A DNA stretch of 64,000 nt from an archaeon (lineage in GTDB: Archaea > Undinarchaeota > Undinarchaeia > Undinarchaeales > JBDRKL01). The notes under the pieces were generated by a model. The model ran no database searches, was not told where the DNA came from, and was given only the letters and a program-made list of their open reading frames with translations. Location of the stretch: positions 8,596 through 72,595 of the forward strand of contig JBDRKL010000012.1 in assembly GCA_043814055.1 (NCBI GenBank), in the 5' to 3' direction. Positions 661 to 64,000 of this stretch are shown here, in pieces. Both the position numbers and the translations under genes were made by a program. The first letter of the stretch is position 1. The number at the start of each line of letters is the position of its first letter.

Positions 661-3610
<2,950 letters not shown>

Positions 3611-4408: not shown

Positions 4409-4513
4409 AGTTTATGAACCCAGCCTCGGGCTCCAATATGATTATTATTGAGTGACCTGGTGAGAAAAAGACTCCCCCTGTTTAGCCCACAGACTTAGCT
4501 GTGGTGCTTTCTT

Positions 4514-5978
<1,465 letters not shown>

Positions 5979-9723: not shown

Positions 9724-9798
9724 TGCCCCAGCCGGGATTCGAACCCGAGTCTCCGCCTTGAAAGGGCGGAATGATTGGCCGGACTACACCACCGGGGC
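9724..9798 (-). tRNA. tRNA-Glu (anticodon UUC)
   Basis: GCCCCGG-TG-GTGTAGTCCGGCCAATCAT-TCCGCC-CTTTCAA-GGCGGA-GAC-TCGGG-TTCGAAT-CCCGG-CTGGGGC-A. No intron and no encoded CCA. Confidence 0.9.
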
Positions 9799-9990
9799 AG
9801 GTTTTTACCAATGTGCACCGAGATACAAAGCTTTTTTCGTCAACGTTTTTGCGAAGCAAAAAGGTTGGACTTCACACCACCGGGGCAACTTTATGTGCGC
9901 CAGGCAATGTACTTTTCTTTTGGTCAAGCTTTTCTTCGTAAAGAAAAGATTGCCGTTGAGTACACCACCGGGGCAACTTTAAGCTATAGG
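9799..9990 (-). repeat. two tandem 88-bp units, each starting with a copy of the tRNA-Glu 5' end (GCCCCGGTGGTGT)
   Basis: The exact 13-mer occurs at 9786-9798 (real tRNA), 9874-9886 and 9962-9974, a spacing of exactly 88 and 88 nt. Each unit has the tRNA 5' fragment, an A/T hairpin, TTGAC(C/G)AAAA, and a ~41-45 nt spacer. Confidence 0.8.
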
Positions 9991-10101: not shown

Positions 10102-10213
10102 TGGGCCCGTCGTGATTCGAACACGAGACCTCACGCTTTCGCAAGCGTGCCCGCATTTTGTGCGGAACACAGCCATATAAGGCGTGCGCTCCACCAGGCT
10201 GAGCTACGGGCCC
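10102..10213 (-). tRNA. tRNA-Ile (anticodon UAU) with 38-nt intron at 37/38 (intron about 10138-10175)
   Basis: GGGCCCG-TA-GCTC-AGCCTGGTG-GAGC-G-CACGC-CTTATA|intron|A-GCGTG-AGGTC-TCGTG-TTCGAAT-CACGA-CGGGCCC-A. The GGGCCCGTAGCTCAG start is typical of archaeal tRNA-Ile. The anticodon TAT reads from 10179-10177. Confidence 0.8.
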
Positions 10214-10349
10214 AAACTTTTATTTAGCCTATGGTTTTGGTTTCCGATGAACTGACCCGATAAGGCCGCAGCATCACCAAAGTGATGCGGCCTAACGCCC
10301 CTCCGCCGCTGTGCGGAGAGCTCCACGGGCCCAAACTTTTATTTAGCCT
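10206..10349 (-). repeat. 25-nt perfect direct repeat (10206-10230 and 10325-10349) bracketing a 94-nt R-family insertion (copy R4, 10231-10324)
   Basis: ACGGGCCCAAACTTTTATTTAGCCT occurs twice. It comprises the last codons and stop of ileS, 6 nt, and the first 8 nt of tRNA-Ile. The intervening sequence holds the hairpins GGCCGCAGCATCACcaaaGTGATGCGGCC and CTCCGCcgctgtGCGGAG. Confidence 0.85.
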
Positions 10350-19508: not shown

Positions 19509-19543
19509 GCGTGATGTCCGTAAGATTTATTTATATATGTTAG

Positions 19544-19563
19544 TATGAAGCGTCAGCTTCATA
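19544..19563. promoter_or_regulatory. perfect inverted repeat TATGAAGCgtcaGCTTCATA in the divergent acn/regulator intergenic region
   Basis: An 8-bp arm, 4-nt spacer palindrome sits between two TATA-like boxes (TTTATTTATATAT and AAGTATATAAAGG). Candidate operator for the adjacent wHTH protein. Confidence 0.4.
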
Positions 19564-19612
19564 TGTGATGAGGTAAAAAAGTATATAAAGGAGAATTAAT
19601 ACCGCTATACAT

Positions 19613-26250: not shown

Positions 26251-26327
26251 GTAGTTTGACTTGCTTGGCAGTCCCGCAGCATCACAAACTTAACGCGGGA
26301 CAATTTGTCAACTGAATTTGCAGTTGT
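26251..26327 (+). repeat. R-family two-hairpin element (copy R1), abutting the tRNA-Asn 5' end
   Basis: GTAGTTTGACTTGCTTGGCA-GTCCCGC-agcatcacaaacttaac-GCGGGAC-aatttgt-CAACTGaatttgCAGTTG-t. Hairpin 1 is 26271-26301 and hairpin 2 is 26309-26326. Confidence 0.65.
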
Positions 26328-26452
26328 GCCTCTGTAGCTCAGCGGTAGAGCGTCTGGCTGTTATCACAAAGCGCGCTTTGTGAATCATCACGAAGCGCAG
26401 CGAAGTGATGGGTACCAGAAGGTCGCAGGTTCAAATCCTGCCGGAGGCGCCA
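26328..26452 (+). tRNA. tRNA-Asn (anticodon GUU) with 50-nt intron at 37/38 (26364-26413); CCA encoded
   Basis: GCCTCTG-TA-GCTC-AGCGGTA-GAGC-G-TCTGG-CTGTTA|intron|A-CCAGA-AGGTC-GCAGG-TTCAAAT-CCTGC-CGGAGGC-G-CCA. The intron forms two hairpins (TCACAAAGCgcGCTTTGTGA and CATCAC..GTGATG). Confidence 0.88.
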
Positions 26453-26477: not shown

Positions 26478-26556
26478 AGGCAAACAAATAGCTTGGCAGT
26501 CCCGCAGCATAACAAACTTAACGCGGGACAATTTGCCGGCGTAATTTGACGCCGAT
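26478..26556 (+). repeat. R-family two-hairpin element (copy R2), 3' of tRNA-Asn
   Basis: GGCAAACAAATAGCTTGGCA-GTCCCGC-agcataacaaacttaac-GCGGGAC-aatttg-CCGGCGtaatttgaCGCCG. Hairpin 1 is nearly identical to R1, and hairpin 2 has a completely different but still complementary stem. Confidence 0.65.
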
Positions 26557-29055: not shown

Positions 29056-29197
29056 AAAAAATGGCCCGGGTAGTTCATTGGCAACCTTTTTCTTTTCACA
29101 AAAGAAAAAGCTCGAACGCGCACAGCGCGTTGAGCAACTCGCTGTCGCGAGTTTGTTTGACCAAAAAGAAAACTTCGGACCGATTTGCGAAAAAAAT
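29056..29197 (+). repeat. 135-bp unit beginning with a 20-nt copy of the tRNA-His start region (pseudo 5' fragment), then a hairpin module (copy M4)
   Basis: AAAAAATGGCCCGGGTAGTT occurs at 29056-29075 and again at 29191-29210, where it is the real tRNA start. After the first copy comes CATTGGCAACC + CTTTTTCTTTTcacAAAAGAAAAAG + two GC hairpins (29110-29135, 29136-29153) + TTGACCAAAAAGAAAA (29157-). Confidence 0.8.
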
Positions 29198-29273
29198 GGC
29201 CCGGGTAGTTTAGTGGTTAGAATTGGAGACTGTGGATCTTCAGACGCGAGTTCAATTCCCGCCCTGGGCCCCA
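29198..29273 (+). tRNA. tRNA-His (anticodon GUG) with genome-encoded G-1, C73 and CCA
   Basis: G(-1)-GCCCGGG-TA-GTTTAGTGGTTAGAAT-T-GGAGA-CTGTGGA-TCTTC-AGAC-GCGAG-TTCAATT-CCCGC-CCTGGGC-C-CCA. One A.C mismatch in the T stem. Confidence 0.85.
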
Positions 29274-29276
29274 TTC

Positions 29277-29360
29277 AACCTTTTTTCCCTTGCGATTGGG
29301 GGAAAAAGCTTGACCAAAAATCAGGGGCGTTCGCTCGCTACGCTTGCGAAGCCCCACTTC
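29277..29360 (+). repeat. hairpin + CTTGACCAAAAA module (copy M5) plus a 32-nt GC hairpin in the hisS leader
   Basis: AACCTTTTTTCCCttgcgattGGGGGAAAAAG-CTTGACCAAAAA (29309-29320), then GGGGCGTTCGC..GCGAAGCCCC (29324-29355). Confidence 0.6.
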
Positions 29361-29378
29361 TTTTTACAGGTGATTTAG

Positions 29379-30668
29379 ATGGATAAATTTGAAGCCACCC
29401 GCGGAATGAGGGATTTCCTTCCAGAGGAGATGGAGAAGAGAAGGTATGTTATTGATATTATTAGGACGACCTTCAAGACCTATGGCTTTGGCGAGATTTG
29501 GACTCCTGCGCTTGAGAGCCTTGGGCTGCTAAGCGCAAAGAGTGGAGGCGGGGACGAGATTGCAAAGACAATATTCACGCTCAAGGACCAAGGAGGAAGG
29601 ATGCTCGGGCTCAAGTTTGACCAGACTGTTCCAACCTCAAGGGTTATCGCGAACAACCCGCAGCTTACAAAGCCATTCAAGCGATTCATAATCAGCCCGG
29701 TTTGGAGGTATGAGAGACCGCAAGCAGGGCGATATAGGGAATTCTGGCAGGCGGATGTGGATATTTTCGGCTCGAAAAACCCAGAGGCAGATGTTGAGAC
29801 TGTTGCGTGCACAGCCGCTGTTCTTACTGCGCTTGAGTTTGAGGAGTATGAGATAATCATAAACAACAGAAAACTGCTCAAGGGGCTTGCGATGCAGTTC
29901 GGATTCAAGGAGAACCAGGTTGTGGACCTGCAGAGGTGCATTGACAAGCTGGACAAGAACAGCGAGGGTGAAGTTGTGCGCGAAGCAGCTGAGAAAGGGC
30001 TTGACGAGGACTTGGTAAGGGACTTTATAGCCACGATAAGCATGGAAGGGAAGCCGGAGGATGTTTTGAAAAAGATAAAGCCAAGTTTGAAAGATACACT
30101 TGCGCTGGAAGGGCTTGGCGAACTAGAGGAGTTTATTTCACTTTCAAAGCCGTATGGCATTTATGAGAAGCTCAAGCTGAACTTGAGCATGGTAAGAGGC
30201 TTGGATTATTACACCGGCACGATTTTTGAGTTCAAGGCAACTGACGCCAAGATTGGCTCGTTTATGGGCGGCGGAAGGTTTGACAAGCTTGTTTCAGCTG
30301 CAGGCGGAGAAGCGATTGCAGCCACCGGGCTTTCAATAGGCGTGGACAGGCTTGTTGAAATTTTGAGAACTAAAGAGAAACTCAAGGCAAGCGGCGGGTG
30401 CAGGGTTCTTGTAGGCTATTTCCCTAACTGCAGGGAGAAAGCAATTGAGATTGCGCAGGGATTGAGGAAGGCTGGGGTTGAAACTGATTTTGACACAAAG
30501 CGCAGGAGCGTTTCAAAAGTTCTGGACTATGCGAACGCGAAGAAGATTCCTTACGTGGTTCTTGTTGGAGAGAAAGAGCTGAAGGAGAACAAGGTTGCGC
30601 TTAAGAATATGGAAACAGGAGAGCAGAAGTTGGTTAAGGAGAGCGAGCTGTTAAAAAGTTTAAAGTAG
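29379..30668 (+). CDS. hisS: histidyl-tRNA synthetase (complete, with anticodon-binding domain)
   Basis: 429 aa with class II motif 2 VWRYERPQAGRYREFWQ, the HisRS motifs RGLDYYTG and GGGRFDKL, motif 3 ATGLSIGVDR, and a C-terminal alpha/beta anticodon-binding domain. AGGTGAT SD. Confidence 0.9.
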   Translation: MDKFEATRGMRDFLPEEMEKRRYVIDIIRTTFKTYGFGEIWTPALESLGLLSAKSGGGDEIAKTIFTLKDQGGRMLGLKFDQTVPTSRVIANNPQLTKPFKRFIISPVWRYERPQAGRYREFWQADVDIFGSKNPEADVETVACTAAVLTALEFEEYEIIINNRKLLKGLAMQFGFKENQVVDLQRCIDKLDKNSEGEVVREAAEKGLDEDLVRDFIATISMEGKPEDVLKKIKPSLKDTLALEGLGELEEFISLSKPYGIYEKLKLNLSMVRGLDYYTGTIFEFKATDAKIGSFMGGGRFDKLVSAAGGEAIAATGLSIGVDRLVEILRTKEKLKASGGCRVLVGYFPNCREKAIEIAQGLRKAGVETDFDTKRRSVSKVLDYANAKKIPYVVLVGEKELKENKVALKNMETGEQKLVKESELLKSLK

Positions 30669-40562: not shown

Positions 40563-40669
40563 GTCTCAGATCGCCCATCACTCATCACCTTATCAGATCG
40601 ATGTCGGATCTTCATTGACAGCTTATGTTAATAAATAAACTAATATAAATAGTGTTTTAAGTTGCGGTT

Positions 40670-41275: not shown

Positions 41276-41824
41276 ATGAAGCTCATTGTTGGAGTCACAG
41301 GAGCGTCTGGAATGCCTCTAGCCCAGCGGCTGCTTGAAGTTCTCGCTGAGAAAAAGGTTGAGGTTCATTTGATTGTTTCTGAGAGCGCGAAGAAAGTTAT
41401 GGAGTTTGAGGAAACCAAGCTGGAGAATTTGGAGAAACTCGCTGCGGAAGTTCACAATGAGAAAGATATTTCGGCTTCAATCGCGTCCGGCTCGTTCAAG
41501 ACGGACGGTATGGTTGTGATTCCGTGCAGCATGAAAACCATTGGCGGCTTGGCGTCGGGCTACTCGGACAATTTGATTCTGCGCGCAGGGGATGTTTGTC
41601 TTAAGCAGGACAGGAAATTAATTCTTGTGCCGCGGGAGACTCCGCTGAGTTATATTCACTTGAAGAACTTGACCACACTGAAACAGGCCGGAGCTGTGAT
41701 TCTGCCGCCGGTGGTGGCGTTCTACCAGAAGCCGCGCACTTTGGAGGATATGACAGATTTTATAATAGGCAAAGTCTTAGATTCGCTTGAGATTGAACAT
41801 AAACTATACGAGAGGTGGAAGTAA
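41276..41824 (+). CDS. ubiX: flavin prenyltransferase UbiX (makes prenyl-FMN for UbiD enzymes)
   Basis: 182 aa with VGVTGASG and VVIPCSMKTIGGLASG. Confidence 0.88.
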   Translation: MKLIVGVTGASGMPLAQRLLEVLAEKKVEVHLIVSESAKKVMEFEETKLENLEKLAAEVHNEKDISASIASGSFKTDGMVVIPCSMKTIGGLASGYSDNLILRAGDVCLKQDRKLILVPRETPLSYIHLKNLTTLKQAGAVILPPVVAFYQKPRTLEDMTDFIIGKVLDSLEIEHKLYERWK

Positions 41825-43081
41825 ATGAAACCATTGAACTTTCAACAGGCAGTTGAGAAGCTCCGCGAGAAAGGAATGCTTGAGGTTGTTTCAGAAGAGC
41901 GCAGCATTGGAGAAATCGCTGAGAAGATTAAGGACTTGAAGCCGATTCTTTTTGAGAATACCGGGACAGATTATAAGGTTGCTGCGAACGTTTGTGGCAA
42001 GGAACTTTTTGAAGCTTACTTTGACGCGCCTTGGAAAGATATCCGCGCGCAGTTTGGGAAAGCTGCTGGAAGTCCTGGCACGGTTGAAGCAACTGACGAG
42101 TTTCCGTTTGAGGAAACCGATGATGATTTTGAAAGCCTGCCGATTCCAATGTACTACAAAGGCGACGGCGGGAAATACATCACTGCAGGGGTTTTCGTGA
42201 TTGAGCAGGATGGGGTGAGGAATTTGTCTTATCACAGGACTATGATTGTTGACGGCAAGACCGCGGTTGTGCGGTTGTGCAAGAGGCATTTGTGGGACGC
42301 GTATGAGAAGAATGGGAATGAATTGGATGTGGCGATTTGCATTGGATTAGATCCTGCGCTTCTTTCAGTTGCATCTTTCTCCACCAAGGAGCCGATGGAT
42401 GAGACTGAGATTGCAGCAGGGTTCTATGAACAGCCGCTGAAGATGGTCAAGATGAGCAACGGGATTTCAGTTCCGCGCTGTGCAGAGATTGTGATTCTTG
42501 GAAAGATTACAAAAGAGCAGGCAAAGGAAGGGCCATTTGTTGACTCAACCGGAACTATGGACGGGGAGAGGCAGCAACCGGTGTTCAAACTTGAGAAAGT
42601 TCTGCGCAAGAAAGATGCGATATTCTATGCACTCGTGCCAGGCCGCGGAGAGCACTCATTCCTGATGGGTGTGAGCAAGGAGCCGATTTTGTTCAACGAG
42701 ATTGCAAAGGTCGCGGACATTCAGGATATTTCATTCGCAGACGGCGGGATAGAATGGATGGGCGCTGTGGTGAGCATCAAGAAGAAGTCTGATGCTGATG
42801 TGAAGAAAGTTATTGAAACCGCGTTCGCTACACACAAGAGCCTGAAGCACGTCTGGGTGTTTGATGAGGACATTGACCTGCTGAACCATATGGACCGCGA
42901 ATGGGCGTTCACTACGCGGTTCCAGGGCGACAAGGACATTTACACTTATCCAGGCGAGCCAGGGTCAAGCCTTGACCCGAGCTCAGAGCCAGGTGATGAC
43001 AGGAGAAATACGTGCAAGGTTGGGTTTGACTGTACGATACCGATGGGGAAGGACAAGAAGGACTTTGAGAAGGTGGCGTGA
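41825..43081 (+). CDS. UbiD-family decarboxylase, candidate trans-anhydromevalonate-5-phosphate decarboxylase
   Basis: 418 aa with UbiD-like architecture. It starts 1 nt after the ubiX stop. The functional call rests on clustering with MVK, AcnX L/S and IPK. Confidence 0.7.
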   Translation: MKPLNFQQAVEKLREKGMLEVVSEERSIGEIAEKIKDLKPILFENTGTDYKVAANVCGKELFEAYFDAPWKDIRAQFGKAAGSPGTVEATDEFPFEETDDDFESLPIPMYYKGDGGKYITAGVFVIEQDGVRNLSYHRTMIVDGKTAVVRLCKRHLWDAYEKNGNELDVAICIGLDPALLSVASFSTKEPMDETEIAAGFYEQPLKMVKMSNGISVPRCAEIVILGKITKEQAKEGPFVDSTGTMDGERQQPVFKLEKVLRKKDAIFYALVPGRGEHSFLMGVSKEPILFNEIAKVADIQDISFADGGIEWMGAVVSIKKKSDADVKKVIETAFATHKSLKHVWVFDEDIDLLNHMDREWAFTTRFQGDKDIYTYPGEPGSSLDPSSEPGDDRRNTCKVGFDCTIPMGKDKKDFEKVA

Positions 43082-43881
43082 GGATGGATTTGCATAGTGA
43101 GACAGCAAATGAGCAAAAACGGCTTGAGTACCTGAGAGGCATTCTTCAAAAACTTGAAAAATGCCAGGGATATTGGGAAAAAGTAGCAAGTGCTGTTGTA
43201 GATTCAAATAAATACAAAATTGGTGCATTTTTAAAAGAGAATAAAGAGCTGGGACGGGATGTCGAACAGATTATGATTACAGAGCTGAACGACGACCCTG
43301 GACTAAACAACGGTAATTACCTGTGGATGCTAAAGCTCACATATAAATTATATGAGGAGATTAATAGGATACTAGGGAAGGCGGACTCAGACGAGATTAC
43401 TAATATAGATGCAGATGCGAAAATTAAGAGTTTGTACCGCAGGACGAAGATGTTGCGGGTAAAGGAACTTCGAAAAATCAAGACACGCCCTGTGCCGGAA
43501 TCTGCGCATGGAATGACATTAGAACTTTTGAAAGCACTCAACAAGGAAATTTCTAGAATCACTGAGGAAATAGAAAGGGAACAGAACAAGCTTGAAAAAC
43601 TTGAGAATAGGCGGAAGAAGGCATCCTTGACGAAGAAAAGGAAACCCAAAACCCCTGAGAAACTCCACCCAAAAGGTATGGAGCTTGAGGATCTCCGCGC
43701 TCTTGTTTTGAAAAAATACCAGTGGTACATGAGGTATATGAACGACGAGCAGGAGTTCCCAAGCTTCACAGAAGATAGTATAAAGAATGCGGAAAAAAAG
43801 TATACGTTGGTGGATATGAACAAGGAGATGGACTTCCTGCTTAAGCACAAGAGCAGGAAGGATTTTGAAGAGGAAGCGTAG
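43078..43881 (+). CDS. hypothetical Lys/Glu-rich coiled-coil protein (267 aa) inserted between the UbiD-type gene and mvk
   Basis: GTGA overlap with the UbiD stop (or ATG at 43084). Its stop lies 1 nt before the mvk ATG. It is markedly A/T-rich relative to flanks (hand count 43141-43260 about 33% GC versus 55% for 42961-43020). Confidence 0.6.
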   Translation: MRMDLHSETANEQKRLEYLRGILQKLEKCQGYWEKVASAVVDSNKYKIGAFLKENKELGRDVEQIMITELNDDPGLNNGNYLWMLKLTYKLYEEINRILGKADSDEITNIDADAKIKSLYRRTKMLRVKELRKIKTRPVPESAHGMTLELLKALNKEISRITEEIEREQNKLEKLENRRKKASLTKKRKPKTPEKLHPKGMELEDLRALVLKKYQWYMRYMNDEQEFPSFTEDSIKNAEKKYTLVDMNKEMDFLLKHKSRKDFEEEA

Positions 43882-43882
43882 C

Positions 43883-44854
43883 ATGGCAGAAGGCAGTGGC
43901 TTTGGAAAAGTGATTTTGTTCAACGAGCACTTCGTTGTTTATGGAGTTCCAGCTATTGCGAGCGCGATTTCTAACAAGACTGTTGCAAAGGTTACTGAAG
44001 CTGAGAGCCTGAAGCCGAGTGGCAACGAGGGCTCAATGGTCGGGAACGGCTGGGTGCTTGAGGACAACAGGGATGCGAACGAGGGCTATAAAACCAAGAA
44101 GCTTGAGCACCAGAAAGAATCAATTGAGCTTGTCCTGAACGCTGCAGATTTTATTGCAGATGAAACTCCAATTAAGATTGAGCTCGGCGGGGACTTGAAA
44201 GCCGTGGGCGGAGTTGGGGCGAGCGCTGCGGTCTGCGTTTCAATCGCGCGGGCTTTGAGCAAGGAATTTGAACTGGGCTTTGATGATGATAAAATAAATG
44301 AGATTGCCTATGAAGGAGAAAAAGCATATGCTGGAACCCCTAGCGGGATTGACAACACTGCTTCAACTTATGGCGGGCTTCTGTGGTTTGTGAAGAATAC
44401 TGAGGGCGGGGCTAACACAATGGATTTGATGGAGCTCAAGGAGCCTTTGGAAATTGTGATGGGAAATACTGGGATTACTACTGATACCAAAGCAGCGGTT
44501 GAGGGAGTTCGGGAAAGGAAAGAGGGGAATCCTGAGTATGAGAAAATATTTGCGCGGGCGCACGAGCTTGGGAAAGAAGCGCTCATCGCGTTGAATGATT
44601 TTAATTTGGAGAAAGTTGGGGCGTTGATGAATGAGAATCACGGAATGCTTCAGAAGATTGGAGTTTCGCACGAGAAGCTTGACGAGCTCGTGGAAATTGC
44701 GCAGGAGAACGGAGCTCTTGGAGCGAAGATGACTGGCGGCGGAATGGGCGGATATATGCTTGCGCTTACTCCGGGCAAGGAACTGCAGGAGAAAGTTGCG
44801 AAGGCGATGGAAGACACGGGTTATGAAGCTTTGAGGACTAAGATTGGGGTTTAA
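43883..44854 (+). CDS. mvk: mevalonate kinase
   Basis: Trimmed to MAEGSGFGKVILFNEHFVVYG (GHMP motif I). Motif II VGGVGASAAV, catalytic SGIDNTASTYGG, motif III GAKMTGGGMGG. Confidence 0.85.
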   Translation: MAEGSGFGKVILFNEHFVVYGVPAIASAISNKTVAKVTEAESLKPSGNEGSMVGNGWVLEDNRDANEGYKTKKLEHQKESIELVLNAADFIADETPIKIELGGDLKAVGGVGASAAVCVSIARALSKEFELGFDDDKINEIAYEGEKAYAGTPSGIDNTASTYGGLLWFVKNTEGGANTMDLMELKEPLEIVMGNTGITTDTKAAVEGVRERKEGNPEYEKIFARAHELGKEALIALNDFNLEKVGALMNENHGMLQKIGVSHEKLDELVEIAQENGALGAKMTGGGMGGYMLALTPGKELQEKVAKAMEDTGYEALRTKIGV

Positions 44855-46048
44855 ATGAACTTAACAAAAGACGAAGAGGCAATGCTCAATGGAGAGCATG
44901 GGAACGCGAAGAAAAAGTCAATGGAAATTCTAGTTGCGCTGGGGAAGATTTTTGGAGCTGAGCGGTTGATTCCTGTAAAGAGTGTTCAAGTTGCAGGGGT
45001 TTCATATTCAAATTTAGGCGAGCCAGGCTTGGAGTACTTGTCCGAGCTTGCGAAGGATGGTAAGGTTGAAGTTTTGACTACGCTGAATCCAGCAGGGATG
45101 GATTTGAAGAACTGGGAAGAATTGGGGTTTGCGCCTGAGTTTGCTGAGAAGCAGAAGCGAGTTATTAATGCGTTCACTGCGATGGGGATTCAAGCGACTT
45201 GCACCTGCACTCCTTATTTGATTGGTAACAAGCCAAAGCTTGGCGAGCACATTGCGTGGAGTGAGTCGAGCGCGGTGACTTATGCGAACTCTATGCTTGG
45301 CGCGAGGACTAATCGGGAAGGTGGGCCGAGCGCTTTGGCTGCGGCGCTGACTGGGAAAACGCCTGAGTATGGTTTGCACTTGGATGAGAACAGGAAACCG
45401 CATATTCATTTTAAGGTTGAAGTGAAATTGGAAAAGCTTTCGGACTATGGGGCTTTGGGCTATGCGATTGGACAGAAGTGCGAGAACAAGATTGCTTATA
45501 TCAGCGGCGTGGAAAAGCCGAGTGTGGATGAGCTCAAGACACTCTGTGCTTCGATTGTAACTTACGGAGCTCAGCCGATTTTCCATATGGAAGGGGTTAC
45601 ACCTGAAACTACAAACTACGAACTACCAACTACAAACTACACAATCACAGAGGCAGACATCAAAGAAGCCTACGAGGCGTTGACTGATGAAGGAACTGAT
45701 GTTGACTTTGTAAGTATTGGTTGTCCGCACGCGAGCATTGAGGAGATTGAAAAAGTTGCAGAGCTGTTGGAAGGTAAACAGGTTAAGGTTGATACTTGGA
45801 TTGCAACTGCGCGGCCTATCAAAGTTGAAGCAGACAAGTTGGGCTTTTCAAAAACTATTGAAGATGCAGGAGCGAAGTTTTCGTGCGATACCTGTATGGC
45901 AGTAGCTCCGCTCAAGGGCAGGTTCAAAACTTGTGCGACTACGAGCGCGAAGGCGTGCTACTACGCGAGGAACAAGAACGCGATGAAGATGCGGATTGGA
46001 AGCTTGGAGCAATGCATTGATGCGGCGGTGAGTGGGGAATGGAGATGA
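44855..46048 (+). CDS. aconitase-X (DUF521-like) catalytic subunit, candidate phosphomevalonate dehydratase large subunit
   Basis: 397 aa. The N-terminus LTKDEEAMLNGEHGNAKKKSMEILVALG is typical of the AcnX large subunit, with Cys residues for an Fe-S cluster. Operon context supports the call. Confidence 0.7.
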   Translation: MNLTKDEEAMLNGEHGNAKKKSMEILVALGKIFGAERLIPVKSVQVAGVSYSNLGEPGLEYLSELAKDGKVEVLTTLNPAGMDLKNWEELGFAPEFAEKQKRVINAFTAMGIQATCTCTPYLIGNKPKLGEHIAWSESSAVTYANSMLGARTNREGGPSALAAALTGKTPEYGLHLDENRKPHIHFKVEVKLEKLSDYGALGYAIGQKCENKIAYISGVEKPSVDELKTLCASIVTYGAQPIFHMEGVTPETTNYELPTTNYTITEADIKEAYEALTDEGTDVDFVSIGCPHASIEEIEKVAELLEGKQVKVDTWIATARPIKVEADKLGFSKTIEDAGAKFSCDTCMAVAPLKGRFKTCATTSAKACYYARNKNAMKMRIGSLEQCIDAAVSGEWR

Positions 46049-46335
46049 AAGAGCAGATAAAGAATTTCTTAATGCCGGATTTGAAGAGGGTTGTACTATT
46101 TTCCCTAATCAGTCTAGGCATGTATATTATAGCTTTTCATATTTTTAAGGGGTATTTAGCAACTTATGGCTACCCATTGCCATTCGGTTATGCTAAGACA
46201 GTGCCGGGAAGCATATTTGCAGGCCCATTGTATATAGCTTGGAGCATACCGAATATACTGGCGAATCTCTTGATTTATTACTTGATTGCGTGCCTATTTT
46301 CTTTTGCTTATGAGAATCTGCGAGGTTCAAAATGA
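46039..46335 (+). CDS. small hydrophobic protein (2-3 TM) between the two AcnX subunit genes
   Basis: 98 aa (or a start at 46045, giving an ATGA overlap with the upstream stop). Its end overlaps the downstream ATG by 4 nt. A/T-rich. Confidence 0.5.
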   Translation: MEMKEQIKNFLMPDLKRVVLFSLISLGMYIIAFHIFKGYLATYGYPLPFGYAKTVPGSIFAGPLYIAWSIPNILANLLIYYLIACLFSFAYENLRGSK

Positions 46336-46715
46336 AAGGCAGAACAATAGTTAAAGGAATCGCAGAAGGCATTGCCCTGGTCAGCCAAGAGCCCATCTCA
46401 TTCTACGGCGGAGTTGACCCGGACACTGGAATTGTGGTTGAAAAAGGGCATGCCCTTGAAGGAAAAGAACTGACTGGGAAGATTCTCGTGTTCCCGCAGG
46501 GCAAAGGGAGCACAGTCGGGTCCTATGTTATTTACGCGCTGAAGAAAAATGGCAAGGCGCCTGCGGCGATTGTTTGCAGGGAAACCGAGACCATTGTCGC
46601 GGTCGGGGCGATTATCGCAGAGATTCCAATGGTGGATAAAGTAGATATATCAGGAATTAATAGTGGCGATAAGCTTAAAGTGGATGGAGACCAAGGGGAA
46701 GTAATCATATTATGA
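46332..46715 (+). CDS. aconitase-X swivel (DUF126-like) subunit, candidate phosphomevalonate dehydratase small subunit
   Basis: 127 aa with GRTIVKGIAEG.ALVS.EPISFYGGVDP.TG and LVFPQGKGSTVGSYV. Confidence 0.7.
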   Translation: MKGRTIVKGIAEGIALVSQEPISFYGGVDPDTGIVVEKGHALEGKELTGKILVFPQGKGSTVGSYVIYALKKNGKAPAAIVCRETETIVAVGAIIAEIPMVDKVDISGINSGDKLKVDGDQGEVIIL

Positions 46716-47620
46716 TAAAAGCATCTGCACCTTCAAAATTAATGCTGTTTGGGGAGCACGCGCTACTCTACGGCGAGCCCGCGATAGCCACTGCGGTTGA
46801 CAAGCGGGCGCACGTCACAGCCTGCGAACTTGAAAAGCCGCGGATTGTGATTGAGCGCAAGGAATCAGATGAGAGCATAGATATTTCTATCAAAGACAAG
46901 TCAGACCACCCAATTGCAAAAGCTGTCCAGGCAACGTTGAAGCACCTTAACAAGAATGTCGGCATTGGAATTGAAATTGACAACGGCGTCACGGACAGCG
47001 CTGCCATAATCAGCGCGACCACGGGCGCAGTGATGAAGCTTCTTACTGACAACTTGATAAAGCCCGAGGTGGCTGAGGTCTCGTATGAAACAGGAAAACT
47101 GCTGAACAACGGAACGAATGGCATAGACAGCACTGTCACGACTTTTGGGGGCACTGTCATGTTTGAGAAGGGGCAGGGCAGGACTGTTCCAATTCATAAT
47201 GACCTGAGCTTTGTCATAGGAGACACAGGAATAAGGAGCGACCCGAACGAGCTTATTGCAAAAATAAAGACAGTGGCGGAGGACCCAAAAGTTGCGCTCA
47301 TGGTATTCAGCATCGGCTCGCTTGTGCGGCGCGCGAATAACGCGCTCATAGCAGGGAACCCGCTTGAGATTGGCCGTCTGATGGATATGAACCACGTGTT
47401 TCTCAGGAATCTTGGCGTGAGCAACCAGTCGCTGGAAAACATAATTGAAGCGGCGAAGGAGACCGGCGCATTCGGAGCCAAGATAACAGGGACAGGCGGC
47501 GAGGGCACGGTAATTGCGCTCACAGACAAGCCAAACGAAGTTGCAAAGGCGATGAAAGAGGCGGGAGCAGTGAAAGCATTCTCAATAAAAAGCAACCAGG
47601 AGGGAGTGAGAATTGAATAA
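46712..47620 (+). CDS. second GHMP-kinase-fold protein, MVK-like but with degenerate phosphate-binding loops
   Basis: 302 aa. Motif I is intact (APSKLMLFGEHALLYG) and the catalytic NGIDSTVTTFGG is intact. Motif II reads DNGVTDSAA instead of PxGSGLGSSAA, and motif III reads TGTGGEG. Confidence 0.7.
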   Translation: MIKASAPSKLMLFGEHALLYGEPAIATAVDKRAHVTACELEKPRIVIERKESDESIDISIKDKSDHPIAKAVQATLKHLNKNVGIGIEIDNGVTDSAAIISATTGAVMKLLTDNLIKPEVAEVSYETGKLLNNGTNGIDSTVTTFGGTVMFEKGQGRTVPIHNDLSFVIGDTGIRSDPNELIAKIKTVAEDPKVALMVFSIGSLVRRANNALIAGNPLEIGRLMDMNHVFLRNLGVSNQSLENIIEAAKETGAFGAKITGTGGEGTVIALTDKPNEVAKAMKEAGAVKAFSIKSNQEGVRIE

Positions 47621-58897: not shown

Positions 58898-58902
58898 TAC
58901 AA

Positions 58903-59012
58903 CCTTTTTCCGCGAAGGCGCGCAAAAAGCTCAAACACACAAAGTGTGTTGAGCAACACGCTGTCGCGTGTTTGCTTGACCAAAAAAATTCGCTTCGCTC
59001 GAAAGGTAGAAT
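58903..59012 (+). repeat. hairpin module (copy M7): CCTTTTT..AAAAAG hairpin, two covarying GC hairpins, then CTTGACCAAAAAAA
   Basis: AACCTTTTTCCGCGAAGGCGCGCAAAAAG + GCTCAAACACACaaaGTGTGTTGAGC (58929-58954) + AACACGCtgtcGCGTGTT (58955-58972) + TGCTTGACCAAAAAAA. TTGACC lies 37 nt before the ATG at 59013. Confidence 0.65.
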
Positions 59013-59930
59013 ATGATAAGAGAAGAACTGCTCAATAAGGTCTCGCAAACCCTGCGCGAGGCAGGCTACGAAGTTGCGCTCCAGTGCACGCCAAGCTGTT
59101 TTGACATACTCGCCCGCAGTGGGCACATTCTGCTCGTGAAAGTTTTGACAAATGTTGACTCGCTCTATGAGGAGCAGGCCGAGGATTTGAAAAGGATTGC
59201 GGATGTTCTGGACGCTTCGCCGCTGCTCGTTGGCGGCACTGCGCGGGGCGAGATGATGAAGGAGAGCACGATGTATGAGAGGCACGGGATTCCTGCTGTT
59301 TCGTTTGACACTTTTGCCGAGACCATAGTTGATAAAAGATTGCCTTTTGTTTACGCGAAGAAGGGCGGGTTCTACGCGCACATCAACGCGGACTTTTTGA
59401 AGAAGTTGCGGGAGAAGAAAGACCTTTCTTTGAATGATTTGGCGCGGGAAGCCGGGGTTTCAAAAGCAACGATTCAGAATTATGAGAAGGGTGAGGGCGC
59501 TGAGGTTGACAATATCTTCCGCCTGCAGGAAGCGCTGGGCGACTTGGTTCTGGATCCCATTGACTTATTTGACTTTGAGGAGAAACCTATAGAGGTTCAG
59601 CCGCGGACTGTCTACGAGCGCGAAATTCACGCGCAGCTTGGCGATATAGGTTTTAAAACAACTGCGGTTACAAAGGCGGCGTTTAGCATTGTTGGAAAGC
59701 ACAAGGATGATATTCTGCTCACTGGCTTGAGGAAGGAGTCAATTGAGAAAAAAGCGCAGGACATCCACGGGGCTTCAATGGCGCTTGAGCAGCACGGGAT
59801 GTTCGTTGTGAACAAGGCGGTGCAGAAAAGCGTTTCAGGAGTTCCTGTTCTTGAAAGGAAAGAGCTTGACAAGGTTGTTACATCAAGGGAATTACTTAAA
59901 ATACTGAAAGAACTAGAGGAGGAACAATGA
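59013..59930 (+). CDS. putative HTH (cro/C1-type) transcriptional regulator, COG1395-like
   Basis: 305 aa with a central HTH, KDLSLNDLAREAGVSKATIQNYEKG. The architecture is typical of the conserved archaeal regulator family. Confidence 0.6.
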   Translation: MIREELLNKVSQTLREAGYEVALQCTPSCFDILARSGHILLVKVLTNVDSLYEEQAEDLKRIADVLDASPLLVGGTARGEMMKESTMYERHGIPAVSFDTFAETIVDKRLPFVYAKKGGFYAHINADFLKKLREKKDLSLNDLAREAGVSKATIQNYEKGEGAEVDNIFRLQEALGDLVLDPIDLFDFEEKPIEVQPRTVYEREIHAQLGDIGFKTTAVTKAAFSIVGKHKDDILLTGLRKESIEKKAQDIHGASMALEQHGMFVVNKAVQKSVSGVPVLERKELDKVVTSRELLKILKELEEEQ

Positions 59931-60250
59931 GCGAAACCATTATTGTGCAGAAAGGATTCAGGAATTTGAAAGAGTTTATAGCAGGGCAGAATAATTTTTA
60001 CGCGTATTTCCTAAAAGGGAATGACTGGGGTGAGATTCGCAGGAGGCATCCTTGGTTCAAGAGATTCCAGAAAGAACATCCAGAGTTGGAAAAAGCACTG
60101 GTAAAGGCAGTGGGAAAAGCAGTAAAGGAACGGGACGAATATCCTTACGAGCAATTGTTTGAGGCGTACAAACTGATGTCAGAGATGGTGCATTCGGGCG
60201 ATTTCAAGAAGGGAAGATACAAGGAACCTAGCCGGATTTTGATTTCGTGA
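59927..60250 (+). CDS. hypothetical protein (107 aa)
   Basis: ATGA overlap with the upstream gene. No motif recognised. Confidence 0.5.
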   Translation: MSETIIVQKGFRNLKEFIAGQNNFYAYFLKGNDWGEIRRRHPWFKRFQKEHPELEKALVKAVGKAVKERDEYPYEQLFEAYKLMSEMVHSGDFKKGRYKEPSRILIS

Positions 60251-60271
60251 GTTGTTCAAATACCCCAAGGC

Positions 60272-61861
60272 TCACTCTTCACCCAACTTCTCAAGTATAG
60301 TGTCAAGTTTTGCATCAATCTCGTCAAGCCGCTTTTCAATATCCTCATCTGAAACAGCAGCAGGAGTTTCAACCACGGATTCTTCCGCCTCAACCACTTC
60401 AGCCCCACCGAACATTGTTTTCAGGAGCGCTGCGTGTACATCGTCAAGATTTGAATATTCCGCGGTCTTAATTACATAAGCCCGCTCCTCTTCGCCAAGC
60501 AAGTTGACCCCTGCAAGAGCCATTATCCTCTGGCCGCTGCCAGAGCCGCTCACGATTGATGACAGCGCATACAAATTCTTGTCTTCGTCCTGATAAATCT
60601 GAACCTGTTGCGGTATCCAGCCCTCAAAGTTCTGCACCTCTGCGCGCGCGAACCTGAATATCTTGTTCACTCCGGCGAGATTTCTCTCCAGCTTGTCAAG
60701 TTTTAATAGCGTGATTTCTCCAGAGTTCGTATGGTCTGCTCCAACGAGGAGTATTCCCGCAATCCTTGCGCCGCTTATCTCTCCGCCTATCGGCTCGTAA
60801 ACAACCACCCAGTATAACTTGTCATTGTATACTGTGAGGAAGGGGTATTTCTGCCACGTGCTGGAGCTGCTGCTGAGCTGACCGCCTGGAATCTCGTACA
60901 GGGATTCGCCATCTGATGAGCGCTGTGTGACGTGCTTAGCCCACCAGCCGAACCTGTTGTAACCGTATACATTGGCCTGCTGGAGCGCTAGGCTCTCTGG
61001 GTAGCAGCGGACGTCCCCACCCAGGAACTCTGAGAGCTCCTGAAGCTCGTCCGGGTTGTAATGCGTTATATCCGAATTTTTAGCGTTTACCAATGTGACG
61101 CCTTCAAATGATTTCTTGTATGTGAATATGAACCAGTTGATTGAGGTCCTTGGATAAACCCACCAGTACCCGCCGTCTGCGTCGGTTGTTATGTAGCCGT
61201 CATCAACCAGCCAAAGCCTGTTGTGGTACCAGGCACGGCGCTTTGAGTAATCCCAAAAGAGCTTGGCCTCTGTGTGCTCCAAGTCAATCTCTGTGACAAC
61301 AGGGCTGGCCTCTATCTCTGCCGAGGTTTGGGAAACGCCTGGTGCGCTTTTTGTGAGCTGGTTTATGAGGCCTCGCGGTTCTATTACTGCGCGCCACACG
61401 AGCTCTCCTTCTTCATAGACAGGGTCAGTGTCAATTACATCAGCCCAGCCAAAGCGGTTAGCGCGAAGCCTGATTCCTCCAGTGTTCTCCGGGACTTTTC
61501 TGACAACGCTCGTCTGGAAGAGGGTGGTTTCCTTTAGCTCAGCGAGGTCTACTTCCTGCGCGTTGAAGTCTGCGCCATCCTCCACGTTGTAGAAGCTTGG
61601 GGACATGCCGACCCAGAGAATGCTCCAGACGCCGCCGATAGCGATTACGGCGATGAAATATGCTATGATTAGCTTTGCAGAGTTGTTAATCTGCAGAGGG
61701 ACTGGCTCTTCAGAATCAAACTTGAGTACATTGAGAGCCAGGAGTATGCCGGGAATTCCGAAGAAGATTCCGAAGTACACGATTTGCACGTCCAGGGATT
61801 GCCACCATAGGAAATAAGTTATGAGCAAAAGCGGTATTACAAGAAATAGGTTTTTTTTCAT
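60272..61861 (-). CDS. membrane protein with a large extracytoplasmic domain and an acidic C-terminal tail
   Basis: 529 aa with three N-terminal TM segments, a Trp/Tyr-rich central domain and a C-terminal coiled/acidic tail. No family recognised. Confidence 0.6.
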   Translation of the reverse strand: MKKNLFLVIPLLLITYFLWWQSLDVQIVYFGIFFGIPGILLALNVLKFDSEEPVPLQINNSAKLIIAYFIAVIAIGGVWSILWVGMSPSFYNVEDGADFNAQEVDLAELKETTLFQTSVVRKVPENTGGIRLRANRFGWADVIDTDPVYEEGELVWRAVIEPRGLINQLTKSAPGVSQTSAEIEASPVVTEIDLEHTEAKLFWDYSKRRAWYHNRLWLVDDGYITTDADGGYWWVYPRTSINWFIFTYKKSFEGVTLVNAKNSDITHYNPDELQELSEFLGGDVRCYPESLALQQANVYGYNRFGWWAKHVTQRSSDGESLYEIPGGQLSSSSSTWQKYPFLTVYNDKLYWVVVYEPIGGEISGARIAGILLVGADHTNSGEITLLKLDKLERNLAGVNKIFRFARAEVQNFEGWIPQQVQIYQDEDKNLYALSSIVSGSGSGQRIMALAGVNLLGEEERAYVIKTAEYSNLDDVHAALLKTMFGGAEVVEAEESVVETPAAVSDEDIEKRLDEIDAKLDTILEKLGEE

Positions 61862-62020: not shown

Positions 62021-63670
62021 ATGACACAAATGGGAGGGCAGCCTGTCTACATTATGTCAGACAAGGCGCAGAGGACCATGGGCAGGGATGCCCAGCGAAT
62101 GAACATCATGGCCGGTCGAATAGTTGCCGAGACCGTGAGAACTACTTTAGGCCCGAAGGGAATGGACAAGATGCTTGTTGATTCTTTGGGCGATGTTGTG
62201 ATTACGAACGACGGCGCGACCATACTGACCGAGATGGACATAAACCACCCGGCAGCGAAGATGCTGGTTGAGGTCGCGAAGACCCAGGACAAAGAGGTCG
62301 GCGACGGAACAACTACAGCTGTTGTTATCGCAGGCGAGCTCCTGAAGAAGGCAGAGGAGCTTTTGGACCAGGGCATACACCCGACAGTCATAACAAGGGG
62401 TTACCGCCTGGCGAACGACAAGGCTCAGGAAGTGCTGGAGAGCATTGCCGAGAATGTCTCGCACACCGACAGGGACACGCTTGAGAAAATCGCAATGACC
62501 GCGATGACCGGAAAATCAGCTGAGAGGGCAAGAGAAAGTCTTGCGAAGCTCGCTGTTGAGGCAGTCACGCTGGTCGCTGATGAACGCGATGGAAAAAGGA
62601 CAGTGAACCAGGACAATATCAAGCTGGAGAAGAAGCAGGGCGGCTCAATTGACGACTCAGAGCTGATAAAAGGGATTATACTTGACAAGGAAAGAGCCCA
62701 CTCTGGAATGCCAGAGCGCGTTGAAAAAGCAAAGATCGCTTTGGTTGACGCTGCGATTGAAATCAAGAAGACAGAGACCGACGCTGAGATAAGCATCACA
62801 GACCCGAGCAAGCTCAAGGACTTCCTTGACCAGGAAGAGAACATGCTGAAAGAGATGGTTGAGAAGGTCAAGAAGTCTGGCGCGAACGTGCTGTTCTGCC
62901 AGAAGGGCATAGAGGACATTGCACAGCACTTCCTAGCAAAGGCAGGAATCCTGGCTGCGCGAAGGGTTAAGAAGAGCGACATGGACGCGCTCGCAAGGGC
63001 CACGGGCGGAAAGGTTGTTTCAAGCCTTGACAGCCTGACAGAAAAGGACCTTGGCTACGCAGGCATTGTTGAGGAGAAGAAAATTGCAGGCGACGAAATG
63101 ATGTTCGTGACCGGCTGCAAGTCCCCGAAAGCTGTTTCCGTTCTAGTGAGGGGCGGGACAGAGCACGTTGTGGACGAGGTTGAGCGCGCATTGAAGGACG
63201 CAGTCGGCGGAGTCGCATCTGCAATTGAGCTTGGAAAAATTGTTGGCGGCGGCGGGGCTGTTGAGATGGAAGTCGTGAAGGAGCTGAGAAAAGCTGCTGA
63301 GAAAACAGGCGGCAGGGAACAGCTCGCAATGACAGCTTTCGCAGACGCGCTGGAAATCATTCCAAGAACCCTTGCTGAGAACGCAGGTCTTGACACAATA
63401 GACAAGCTCGTTGAGCTCAGGAGCCAGCACGAGAAAGCAGGAAACAAATGGATCGGGCTTGACGTGTTCACTGGAAAGACTATGGACATGTACAAGGAAG
63501 GCGTCATAGAGCCGCTCAAGATAAAGACGCAGGCGATTAAGAGCGCGTCAGAAGCGGCAGAAATGATTCTGCGCATAGACGACATTATCAGCGCAAGGAA
63601 CATGAGTGAGTCCGGCGGTGGCGGTGGAATGCCGCCTGAAGGAATGGGTGGAATGCCAGGGATGATGTAA
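62021..63670 (+). CDS. ths: thermosome subunit (group II chaperonin)
   Basis: 549 aa with [28 protein letters not shown] and the C-terminal GGM-type tail [26 protein letters not shown]. Confidence 0.95.
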
Positions 63671-63761
63671 GGCCTCGGTCTGTTTAGCCCACTTCGCGAA
63701 GCGAATGTGGGTGCTCACCCTCCGCGAGCAGGCGGAGGTGTGGATGCCGGGGATGATGTAG
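63649..63761 (+). repeat. imperfect ~21-nt direct repeat of the thermosome 3' end bracketing a 70-nt two-hairpin insertion (copy R6)
   Basis: GGAATGCCAGGGATGATGTAA (ends at 63670) versus GGATGCCGGGGATGATGTAG (ends at 63761). Between them lie CCCACTTCGCgaaGCGAATGTGGG and CCTCCGCgagcagGCGGAGG. Confidence 0.7.
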
Positions 63762-63875
63762 ATACCCAATAAATAATCTGAAGAGGGGCTCAATACAAGG
63801 GCTCCTCTTTTTCTAATTTTTTAATCGTTATCATAAGCTTTAAATAGATACTTTCTTTATTCCGCAGTGGTAACA

Positions 63876-64000
63876 ATGCCGCTAAGAGAGGAAACTTACG
63901 AAATAGTCCCGATTGACCCTGTTCACAAGGCTGAGAGGAAGCACGAGAGCCTTGAGAAGGAAATTGCAGACATAAAAGCCGCGATGAGGGGGACTGTTGG
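63876..64000 (+). CDS. hypothetical protein, N-terminal fragment (runs off window end)
   Basis: Own translation from the ATG at 63876: MPLREETYEIVPIDPVHKAERKHESLEKEIADIKAAMRGT... The frame is open to the window edge and no SD is obvious. Confidence 0.35.
   Translation, partial: MPLREETYEIVPIDPVHKAERKHESLEKEIADIKAAMRGTV

Follow-up and report, generated by a model that had tools for sequence, protein, structure and literature searches.

How a gene comes to end twice is the question raised by a thermosome locus in a 64,000-nucleotide stretch of archaeal DNA (contig JBDRKL010000012.1 of assembly GCA_043814055.1, positions 8,596 to 72,595; hereafter the window). The last codons and the stop codon of the gene, which encodes a group II chaperonin, are found again a short distance downstream, beyond two hairpins. 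The explanation that we favor, with a probability of roughly 0.55, is insertion of small hairpin elements, non-autonomous ones, at the ends of genes, with duplication of 14–26 bp of the target. Relative to five relatives, the thermosome locus carries an insertion that is flanked by a duplication and forms stable hairpins; two further inserts between duplicated tRNA 5′ ends, one in this genome and one in a different genome, have the same hairpin signature and layout; and relatives vary in the presence or absence of such inserts. The host belongs to a poorly known, uncultivated archaeal lineage, and the nearest named relatives of its thermosome are from Undinarchaeota metagenome-assembled genomes (MAGs). 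Coordinates are collected in Table 1.

Table 1. Features of the thermosome terminus and of comparable loci in the window (CDS, coding sequence; ORF, open reading frame; HTH, helix-turn-helix)
Feature	Position	Strand	Basis or content
Thermosome (group II chaperonin) CDS	62021..63670	+	549 aa, ORF list; GGM-type tail ...GGMPGMM*
Upstream copy of the terminus, ATGCCAGGGATGATGTAA	63653..63670	+	Functional last five codons and TAA, contiguous with the CDS
Inserted two-hairpin element, 73 nt	63671..63743	-	Folds, shared hairpin, layout comparison, absence in five relatives
Hairpin CCCACTTCGC-GAA-GCGAATGTGGG	63687..63712	+	Leader motif CTGTTTAG in front
Hairpin with core CCTCCGC-GAGCAG-GCGGAGG (63719-63738)	63716..63742	+	DNA fold
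Downstream "orphan" copy, ATGCCGGGGATGATGTAG	63744..63761	+	Non-coding, out of frame, spaced from the terminator as in the ancestral gene end
Original intrinsic-terminator-like hairpin (12 pairs) and T-run	63780..63820	+	Arrangement of AATAATCTG, hairpin and T-run common to relatives
Second TGTTTAGCCCAC-hairpin-TGCT module	4479..4508	+	16S/tRNA-Ala spacer
tRNA-Glu 5′ events	9782..9980	-	Three 5′-end copies (9782-9804, 9870-9892, 9958-9980), 88-nt spacing
ileS/tRNA-Ile event	10206..10349	-	25/25-nt repeats 10206-10230 and 10325-10349, 94-nt two-hairpin insert 10231-10324
tRNA-His 5′ event	29056..29216	+	Repeats 29056-29081 and 29191-29216, 109-nt three-hairpin insert, CAACC-T5...TTGACCAAAA family
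Long-form CAACC...TTGACCAAAA element	58898..59012	+	Between the fibrillarin stop and the start of the next gene (HTH)

Two copies of the thermosome terminus

The thermosome CDS matches NCBI MFH1424950.1 ("thermosome subunit beta [archaeon]") exactly and contains the domain PF00118 (Cpn60_TCP1); its 3′ end reads ...GGT GGA ATG CCA GGG ATG ATG TAA. A prediction made earlier from the letters of the window had stated that this end recurs 91 nt downstream (63670 to 63761) and that the upstream copy keeps the reading frame and the stop. Direct reading of the sequence confirmed both statements: the upstream copy supplies the TAA, and the two copies are identical at 16 of 18 positions, both mismatches being A/G differences, one at the third position of the Pro codon and one between TAA and TAG. 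Because the spacing is 91 nt, the orphan copy is out of frame with the upstream copy. When one indel is allowed, the similarity reaches approximately 6 nt further (GGTG-GAATGCC versus GGTGTGGATGCC), for a total of about 24 bp.

The original prediction had also named the low complexity of the GGM tail as something that might account for the repeat by itself. The tail is repetitive (GGAATGCC occurs twice within the CDS) and the source is a MAG, and these are the points in favor of a chance similarity or a metagenome assembly artefact. However, ATGCCRGGGATGATGTAR with up to two mismatches matched only the two thermosome-end sites in the window, and 0 of 100 dinucleotide shuffles produced the like. 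The tail does not explain the orphan copy, because this copy is non-coding, lies past 73 nt of unrelated, hairpin-forming sequence and includes a stop codon. The repeat is, moreover, imperfect and shorter than typical assembly k-mers, and the same architecture is seen at four other loci of the window as well as in contigs that were assembled independently, from different samples, so that chance and artefact can be regarded as effectively refuted.

The intervening 73 nt fold as DNA with a dG of -19.2 kcal/mol (z = -3.5), none of the shuffled sequences folding as well, and the RNA fold of 63640-63820 contains the identical two hairpins; the prediction of two hairpins between the copies and a terminator after the second agrees with these folds and with the hairpin at 63780-63820. 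Read on the minus strand, the insert consists of 5 nt, a first hairpin (H1, CCTCCGC-N6-GCGGAGG), 7 nt, a second hairpin (H2) and a 17-nt tail (CTAAACAGACCGAGGCC). It has neither a T-run nor an A-rich end and, because the T-run is lacking, transcription of ths probably continues as far as the old terminator. The element would then probably amount to two added stem-loops in the 3′-untranslated region (UTR) of the mRNA, read through to that terminator; the thermosome protein is unchanged, and the consequence is likely to be modest.

Comparison of thermosome 3′ ends among relatives, the check proposed with the original prediction, revealed empty sites. The closest match in the genome and metagenome collections scanned with the thermosome was 75% identical (Candidatus Undinarchaeota MAGs), and a protein search returned relatives at 77–82%. 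The insert is absent from five relatives (L001, L002, L003, L356 and L357) whose thermosomes are 73–80% identical to that of the window. A homologous terminator composed of AATCT/AATAAT, a hairpin and a T-run begins about 9–15 nt or less after the stop codon in L357, L003, L002 and L001; L357 (thermosome 79%) is also syntenic, with the order Nop5-fibrillarin-HTH-thermosome. In L356 (80%), the promoter region of the next gene directly follows the thermosome stop.

When these loci are aligned with the window, the ancestral terminator spacing belongs to the downstream copy (TAG, 15 nt, AATCTG...) and not to the upstream copy, which bears out the proposal that the terminator behind the second copy is the original one. 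The excess of the window over the relatives is 91 bases, corresponding to the 73-nt insert and an 18-nt duplicate of the gene end. Because the stop codon of the relatives runs almost directly into the terminator or the next promoter, the window represents an insertion with duplication of the target, and each copy of the repeat is contiguous with its own original flank, as target duplication predicts. The site before insertion would have read ...GGGATGATGTA[A/G] joined to ATACCCAAT.

As 15 of the 18 duplicated positions are constrained in the functional copy by Met, Pro and Gly codons, the identity of the two copies gauges the decay of the orphan. Between the window and L161, its closest relative, identity at four-fold-degenerate thermosome sites has fallen to 44%, and a neutral orphan copy with at most two changes must therefore be far younger than the split between the two.

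Several known arrangements were tried for this locus and rejected. No Rfam match was obtained at 63600-63900, even at E<=5; a C/D box small RNA (sRNA) was rejected on this ground and because ATGATGT and CTGT are not canonical boxes, and an H/ACA RNA or other Rfam family for want of a match. An archaeal bulge-helix-bulge (BHB) intron was rejected because the RNA fold consists of two autonomous hairpins that do not bring the repeats into a BHB; indeed, direct repeats cannot pair together, which makes such pairing of the two copies impossible. The variable repeat/template repeat (VR/TR) pair of a diversity-generating retroelement was rejected because the repeat is only 18 nt long, no reverse transcriptase is nearby and the thermosome tail is conserved; the upstream copy, the would-be VR, has A where the downstream copy has G, which is the wrong direction. 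Tandem duplication was rejected because the sequence past the orphan copy is unrelated to the insert. The notion that the thermosome end mimics a tRNA 5′ end (TGCCGGGGATGATGTAG against GCCCCGGTGGTGTAG of tRNA-Glu, 12/16 positions) was set aside as a weak lead; a match of this quality falls within the top 2.6% of random 17-mers, and the polarity of the element implies the opposite strand.

Three further observations concern the same neighborhood. At 63734-63746 (GGAGGTGTGGATG...), the 3′ arm of the second hairpin provides a Shine-Dalgarno (SD)-like GGAGG, and 5 nt past it the orphan copy reads ATG CCG GGG ATG ATG TAG, a potential mini-ORF of five codons (63734-63761); the combination is probably coincidental, because the SD-like sequence is sequestered in the hairpin stem. 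At L484 4154-4195 (thermosome 77%), approximately 38 extra GC-rich bases lie between the stop and the terminator and contain ATCCGGGGC twice, resembling the CDS end ATGCCGGGG; they may be a decayed event of the same kind. Upstream, two genes at 59927-61861 (107 aa; 529 aa, minus strand, no Pfam match) separate the HTH gene from the thermosome gene and are absent from the syntenic L357, where the thermosome directly follows the HTH gene.

Inserts at other gene termini

The visible genome is the 64-kb window, and the insert families are small in copy number. Across it, nine short-range direct repeats were found against 0.23 expected (approximately 40-fold), all at gene termini except two that are protein-internal and one weak 16-nt repeat. 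The claim that tRNA loci show the same duplication of termini holds for tRNA-Ile (25/25), tRNA-His (24/26) and tRNA-Glu (three copies).

The ileS/tRNA-Ile repeat begins in the last codons of ileS, takes in its stop and the 6-nt spacer behind it, and reaches 8 nt into a tRNA-Ile gene that contains an intron. Empty sites are found in L358, where the ORF runs into the tRNA, and in L359, where TAA, 3 nt and the tRNA follow one another. At tRNA-His, positions -8 to +18 are duplicated 135 nt upstream, 20 nt of them perfectly and 24/26 overall. At tRNA-Glu, two tandem, related 65-nt inserts of the CAACC...TTGAC family are accompanied by duplications of about 14 and 20 bp, and L359 has the empty site; tandem duplication was rejected here too, because the two inserts have diverged far more than the repeats that flank them. 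The element between the fibrillarin and HTH genes is flanked by a short repeat only (ATGATA), and in L357 the corresponding stop and start codons abut.

The hairpin CCTCCGC-N6-GCGGAG is common to the thermosome insert and the tRNA-Ile insert (10300-10318), with 0.02 matches expected, and the claim that the second thermosome hairpin is that of the ileS/tRNA-Ile insert therefore stands for the shared CTCCGC...GCGGAG. The broader pattern CTCCGC-N5-7-GCGGAG occurs twice in the window and once among 359 other loci. This third copy lies in L359 (JGI Ga0118724_1000012; IleRS and thermosome 70% and 79% identical to those of the window), in which the 5′ end of tRNA-Asn, TGCCCCTGTAGCTCA, is duplicated 86 nt upstream, with a 71-nt two-hairpin insert containing CTCCGC-CTTCTT-GCGGAG in between (3536-3636). 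All three copies thus sit in two-hairpin inserts of 71–94 nt between duplicated gene termini, the duplications being 25/25 at tRNA-Ile, 16/18 at the thermosome and 15/15 at tRNA-Asn. The layout is shared as well: orphan repeat, 5–6 nt, H1, 7–8 nt, H2, a tail of 17–33 nt and the repeat contiguous with the gene, uniform in order and in polarity relative to the gene body in the three inserts, the thermosome case being read on the minus strand. The 6-nt spacers of the hairpin differ (GAGCAG, ACAGCG and CTTCTT). The other hairpin of the thermosome insert, with its CTGTTTAGCCCAC leader, has a second occurrence in the 16S/tRNA-Ala spacer.

A second family has the signature CAACC-T5-(variable stem)-A5G-CTTGACCAAAA and comprises the tRNA-His, tRNA-Glu and fibrillarin inserts, with further members immediately 3′ of tRNA-His, tRNA-Ala and a C/D sRNA candidate. 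Its members are always co-oriented with the upstream gene and are terminator-like, with a conserved stem base and compensatory inner stems; the stems differ strongly among the few family copies, covarying while the flanking motifs stay conserved. The C/D box candidate (40563-40619, minus strand) is below the gathering score (snoPyro_CD, 30.5 bits, E = 0.02); C, D′, C′ and D boxes can be recognized by eye, and a CAACC-T5...TTGACCAAAA module follows directly. The family motifs were absent from all other loci of the first set compared. Pattern scans of viral contigs (CCGCAGCATCACAAA, AAAGCTTGACCAAAAA and CCTCCGC-N6-GCGGAGG) gave scattered matches only, which were judged without inspection to be chance or generic hairpins.

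The tRNA-His insert offers a comparison between genomes. Its core (TTTTTCTTTTCACAAAAGAAAAA ... AAAAAGAAAACTTCGG) is identical in the window and in L482, although their histidyl-tRNA synthetases (HisRS) are only 64% identical, and in both the loop of the TTTTTCTTTTCACAAAAGAAAAA hairpin is CAC, a His codon. At L482 1-100, the core is preceded by at least 10 nt that match the tRNA-His of L482 itself (CGGATAGTCT) and not that of the window (CGGGTAGTT); only 10 nt of this orphan fragment are visible because the contig starts inside it. The orphan fragment thus tracks each genome's own tRNA-His at lineage-specific positions. L480 (5790-5860), whose HisRS is 90% identical to that of L482, has no tRNA-His insert. 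The simpler account is that one element entered this site in two independent events, each of which copied the target of the genome concerned; an ancient structure, with the orphan and the tRNA evolving in concert and with loss in L480, also fits, and is less simple. The insert itself could represent either the spread of one element or a conserved leader of the tRNA-His-hisS-his operon.

The last alternative is related to a broader one, namely that the duplication is itself functional and selected, either as an SD-like GGAGG with a mini-ORF or as orphan tRNA fragments that pair with precursors in leaders of aminoacyl-tRNA synthetase genes. Besides GGAGGTGTGGATG... at 63734-63746, it could draw on the position of tRNA-His before hisS and the his operon and of tRNA-Ile directly after ileS, and on the identical tRNA-His core in two distant genomes with an orphan that follows the resident tRNA. 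We nevertheless consider selection for the duplication highly improbable: relatives do without the structures (the thermosome, ileS/tRNA-Ile and tRNA-Glu sites are empty in some, and L480 has no tRNA-His insert), the SD-like sequence is buried in a stem, and the loops (CAC for His, TTC for Glu) bear no consistent relation to codons or anticodons.

Further observations were made beside these loci. The called IleRS ORF of L358 stops at a TAG inside the D-loop of tRNA-Ile (5675-5689). Cognate tRNA and synthetase genes are linked at 10102-13269 (minus strand, ileS/tRNA-Ile) and 29199-30668 (plus strand, tRNA-His/hisS); in the ancestral arrangement, tRNA-Ile (anticodon by eye TAT) lies 6 nt after ileS, and tRNA-His is directly upstream of hisS and the his biosynthesis operon. 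In addition, a 58-nt two-hairpin module (loop AGCATCACAAAC) is present at 26263-26320 and 26491-26548 in copies that are 90% identical and that bracket an intron-containing tRNA-Asn(GTT) at 26328-26449; related modules lie at 10036-10098 and inside the tRNA-Ile insert (10262-10295), and all four are on the plus strand regardless of gene orientation.

Possible routes of insertion

In the favored explanation, a non-coding element of 65–110 nt with two or three hairpins, belonging to a lineage-specific family, would have inserted at the very end of the thermosome gene and copied about 18 bp of the target (with a single indel admitted, up to about 24 bp). The ORF would now be finished, with TAA, by the upstream copy, and the downstream copy would be a non-coding relic before the original terminator. 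Such elements would be mobile but non-autonomous, moved in trans by an enzyme encoded outside the window, and offset cleavage or joining would leave 14–26 bp of target on both sides. The first 10–20 or so transcribed bases of tRNA genes would be the preferred target, the GC-rich ATGCCGGGGATGATGTAG end of the thermosome gene being an occasional extra one, and an insertion would survive since the duplication regenerates an intact gene end.

Several observations weigh against this explanation. The duplications are approximately 14, 15, 18, 20, 25 and 26 bp long, with about 6–11 bp at fibrillarin, a spread not expected of a classical transposase; the elements lack terminal inverted repeats (TIRs); and a Pfam scan of about 50 proteins of the window detected no transposase, integrase, Cas1 or reverse transcriptase. 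The CTCCGC type has been seen in three copies only. At the junction on the orphan side, the first 5–7 nt of the insert resemble the gene sequence just past the repeat, offset by 1–2 nt, as in GCTCA[C]GTGGCT, CCCGT[GG]AGCTC, GGTGT[GA]AGTCC and GGTG[T]GGATGCC; this likeness fits microhomology joining or att-arm similarity better than clean staggered cuts. Finally, L161 and L163 (thermosomes 82%) carry, at the same place, approximately 91 nt with three different hairpins and no duplication. The end of their insert nearest the stop looks homologous to that of the window (CTAAAC..., minus strand), but orthology of the window and L161 inserts is uncertain, because a duplication is missing from L161 and the orphan copy has decayed too little to be older than the split. 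To judge by the loci compared, the spacer between the thermosome stop and the terminator has evidently been hit repeatedly in this clade. The variable duplication, the absence of TIRs, the junction likeness and the lack of an enzyme in the window keep recombination at attachment (att) sites, template switching and, less likely, retroposition viable.

In att-type recombination by an integrase, the duplicated segment would be the att core, and the insert a miniature, decayed or trans-mobilized element that carries its own gene end. tRNA genes and the 3′ end of a housekeeping gene are classical targets of integrases, the segment of identity varies in length among sites, imperfect similarity extends past the perfect repeat on one side only, as in att arms, the polarity relative to the gene is fixed, and the tandem array at tRNA-Glu is reminiscent of att-site accretion. 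Core sites of tyrosine recombinases have the geometry of an inverted repeat with a short spacer, which CCTCCGC-N6-GCGGAGG with its 6-nt spacer reproduces. However, the inserts are 65–110 nt long and encode nothing, and a double-stranded circle of 90–135 bp would be implausibly small; one insert family occurs at different targets (His and Glu; Ile, Asn and thermosome), and a separate att core would be required for each; the CTCCGC hairpins do not agree in their spacers; the 5′ rather than the 3′ ends of the tRNA genes are duplicated; and the window has yielded no integrase. This route therefore seems rather unlikely.

The junctions can also be read as products of template switching or end joining, mediated by microhomology, at loci that are fragile and highly transcribed, the hairpin module being copied from elsewhere without a dedicated enzyme. 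A polymerase would leave the gene end, copy the module and return upstream of its exit, which would give a target duplication of variable length, and lengths from 14 to 26 bp are observed. Junctions with 4–6 nt of microhomology and 1–2 nt indels, the very high expression of the genes concerned (tRNAs, thermosome, rRNA operon spacer), the existence of three unrelated hairpin families with the same flanking pattern and the lack of a mobile-element gene in the scan of the window all speak for it. On the other hand, no identical donor copy of any insert lies within the 64 kb, the motifs being shared but the stems different; the same tRNA-His core at the same position in two genomes with HisRS at 64% would be hard to obtain by random repair; the CTCCGC inserts have a consistent layout and polarity; and the microhomology is clear at only one of the two junctions. 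We regard this origin as unlikely.

Retroposition of a small two-hairpin RNA at a nick, by target-primed reverse transcription in the manner of a short interspersed nuclear element, would likewise agree with duplications varying from 14 to 26 bp. Microhomology and extra nucleotides are known from the 5′ junctions of L1 and Alu, and here they are found at one junction only; the other end is A-rich in several inserts (ATAAAAG, CCAAAACCAT, GTAAAAACC, ...GCG followed by A7), and the CAACC family is always co-oriented with transcription. Nevertheless, the scan of window proteins gave no reverse transcriptase, archaea are not known to have a system of this kind, an A-rich end is missing from the thermosome insert, and the T5 runs in the elements would terminate archaeal transcription, which together make retroposition very improbable.

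A tentative extension of the favored explanation, which we consider possible though doubtful, is that the inserts represent an undescribed class of archaeal mini-elements, non-coding hairpin cassettes of 65–110 nt placed site-specifically at tRNA starts and look-alike GC-rich gene ends by machinery that acts in trans and leaves long target duplications of variable length. This might be Cas1- or casposase-like, a recombinase with folded single strands as its substrate, or a reverse transcriptase primed at the target. One family or more (CAACC-T5 ... TTGACCAAAAAGAAAA) would perhaps be a portable terminator/promoter cassette that rewires tRNA transcription: transcripts from the old tRNA promoter would stop at the hairpin, and a new start would lie approximately 25–30 nt past AAAAAGAAAA.

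Resemblance to known systems

Fungal mitochondrial genomes (Allomyces, chytrids and Schizosaccharomyces) contain double-hairpin elements (DHEs), which are described in PMC10085805 with a citation of Paquin et al. (2000). They resemble the present inserts in being tiny, non-coding units of two adjacent hairpins in intergenic regions, rRNA spacers or genes, in the unknown mechanism of their mobilization, in differing in presence or absence among relatives and in occurring as near-identical copies in diverged genomes. Two-hairpin intergenic units of approximately 50–100 nt with presence/absence variation are indeed what is found here, the likeness being one of architecture and not of sequence homology. 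The inserts differ in belonging to another domain of life and in forming several families with conserved single-stranded motifs and strongly covarying stems. To our knowledge, neither long target duplications nor a preference for tRNA 5′ ends has been described for DHEs.

The bacterial repetitive extragenic palindromes (REPs) and bacterial interspersed mosaic elements (BIMEs), which are mobilized by the IS200/IS605-like REP-associated tyrosine transposases (RAYTs), are also short, non-autonomous extragenic palindromes after stop codons; they are present in many copies per genome and can act as mRNA 3′ stabilizers or terminators. However, REP insertion leaves no target duplication, whereas several of the inserts here are flanked by long ones, in an archaeal host and at an apparently modest copy number, and no RAYT/TnpA (Y1 HUH) transposase was found among the approximately 50 window proteins. 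Transposable elements of the miniature inverted-repeat type (MITEs) are similar in being small, non-coding and multi-copy, with direct target duplications and empty sites in relatives. The 73-nt insert, however, begins with GGCCTCGGTCTG... and finishes with ...GGCGGAGGTGTGG, which do not form an inverted repeat, its pairing being internal, and the Ile, His and Glu inserts likewise have no TIRs. In place of a short duplication of fixed length, 18 (thermosome), 25 (Ile), 20–26 (His), about 14 and 20 (Glu) and 15 bp (L359 Asn) are observed, and the same protein set contained no transposase through which a parent insertion sequence could be identified.

Integrative elements at tRNA genes and at the 3′ ends of housekeeping genes, including decayed cis-mobilizable elements (CIMEs), are exemplified by ICESt1/St3 at fda and by archaeal elements of the SSV type. 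They leave a direct repeat of approximately 15–30 bp over the gene terminus, keep the gene intact, prefer tRNA targets and accrete in tandem, but they measure kilobases and have, or formerly had, an integrase gene. The inserts described here do lie between direct repeats that overlap a gene terminus; these are hairpins of 65–110 nt without coding capacity, and it is the tRNA 5′ end, not the 3′ end, that is duplicated. Casposons and Cas1-mediated integration, which occur in archaeal hosts, produce target duplications of 14–15 bp (casposons) or of repeat length (spacers). Their targets include tRNA genes and the 3′ end of the aEF-2 gene, and tandem insertions share a duplication; casposons, however, measure 8–20 kb and have TIRs, Cas1, PolB and a fixed duplication length. 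The inserts are too small for casposons and not spacer-sized, have no TIRs and a variable duplication, and no Cas1 was found in the window. Each of these systems fails in at least one defining feature; the architecture comes nearest to that of DHEs, the position and possible function are like those of REP/BIME, and the duplication of the gene terminus is like that of integrative elements and casposons. No description of such elements was found in the literature on archaea, DPANN and Undinarchaeota.

If mobile, these elements would be among the smallest prokaryotic insertion elements. Their integration signature, which combines long duplications (14–26 bp), a preference for tRNA 5′ ends and preservation of the gene by a regenerated terminus, matches no characterized transposase or integrase. 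The inserts alter the surroundings of strongly expressed loci, namely tRNAs, the chaperonin and the rRNA spacer; tRNA and gene callers may be misled by orphan tRNA 5′ fragments and by CDS ends that occur twice, and perfect 25-bp repeats are ready substrates for precise deletion.

Two minor observations concern the window at large. A further intron-containing tRNA of 127 nt (8334-8460, minus strand; Rfam tRNA, 41.9 bits) was recovered only by the Rfam scan in E-value mode and was missed by the gathering-mode scan and by ARAGORN. The regions 17586-24237 and 41276-47620 encode ATP-citrate lyase subunits, aconitase, isocitrate dehydrogenase, AcnX-type mevalonate pathway genes, UbiD/UbiX and a full his operon, a gene content richer than is usual for DPANN-like genomes.

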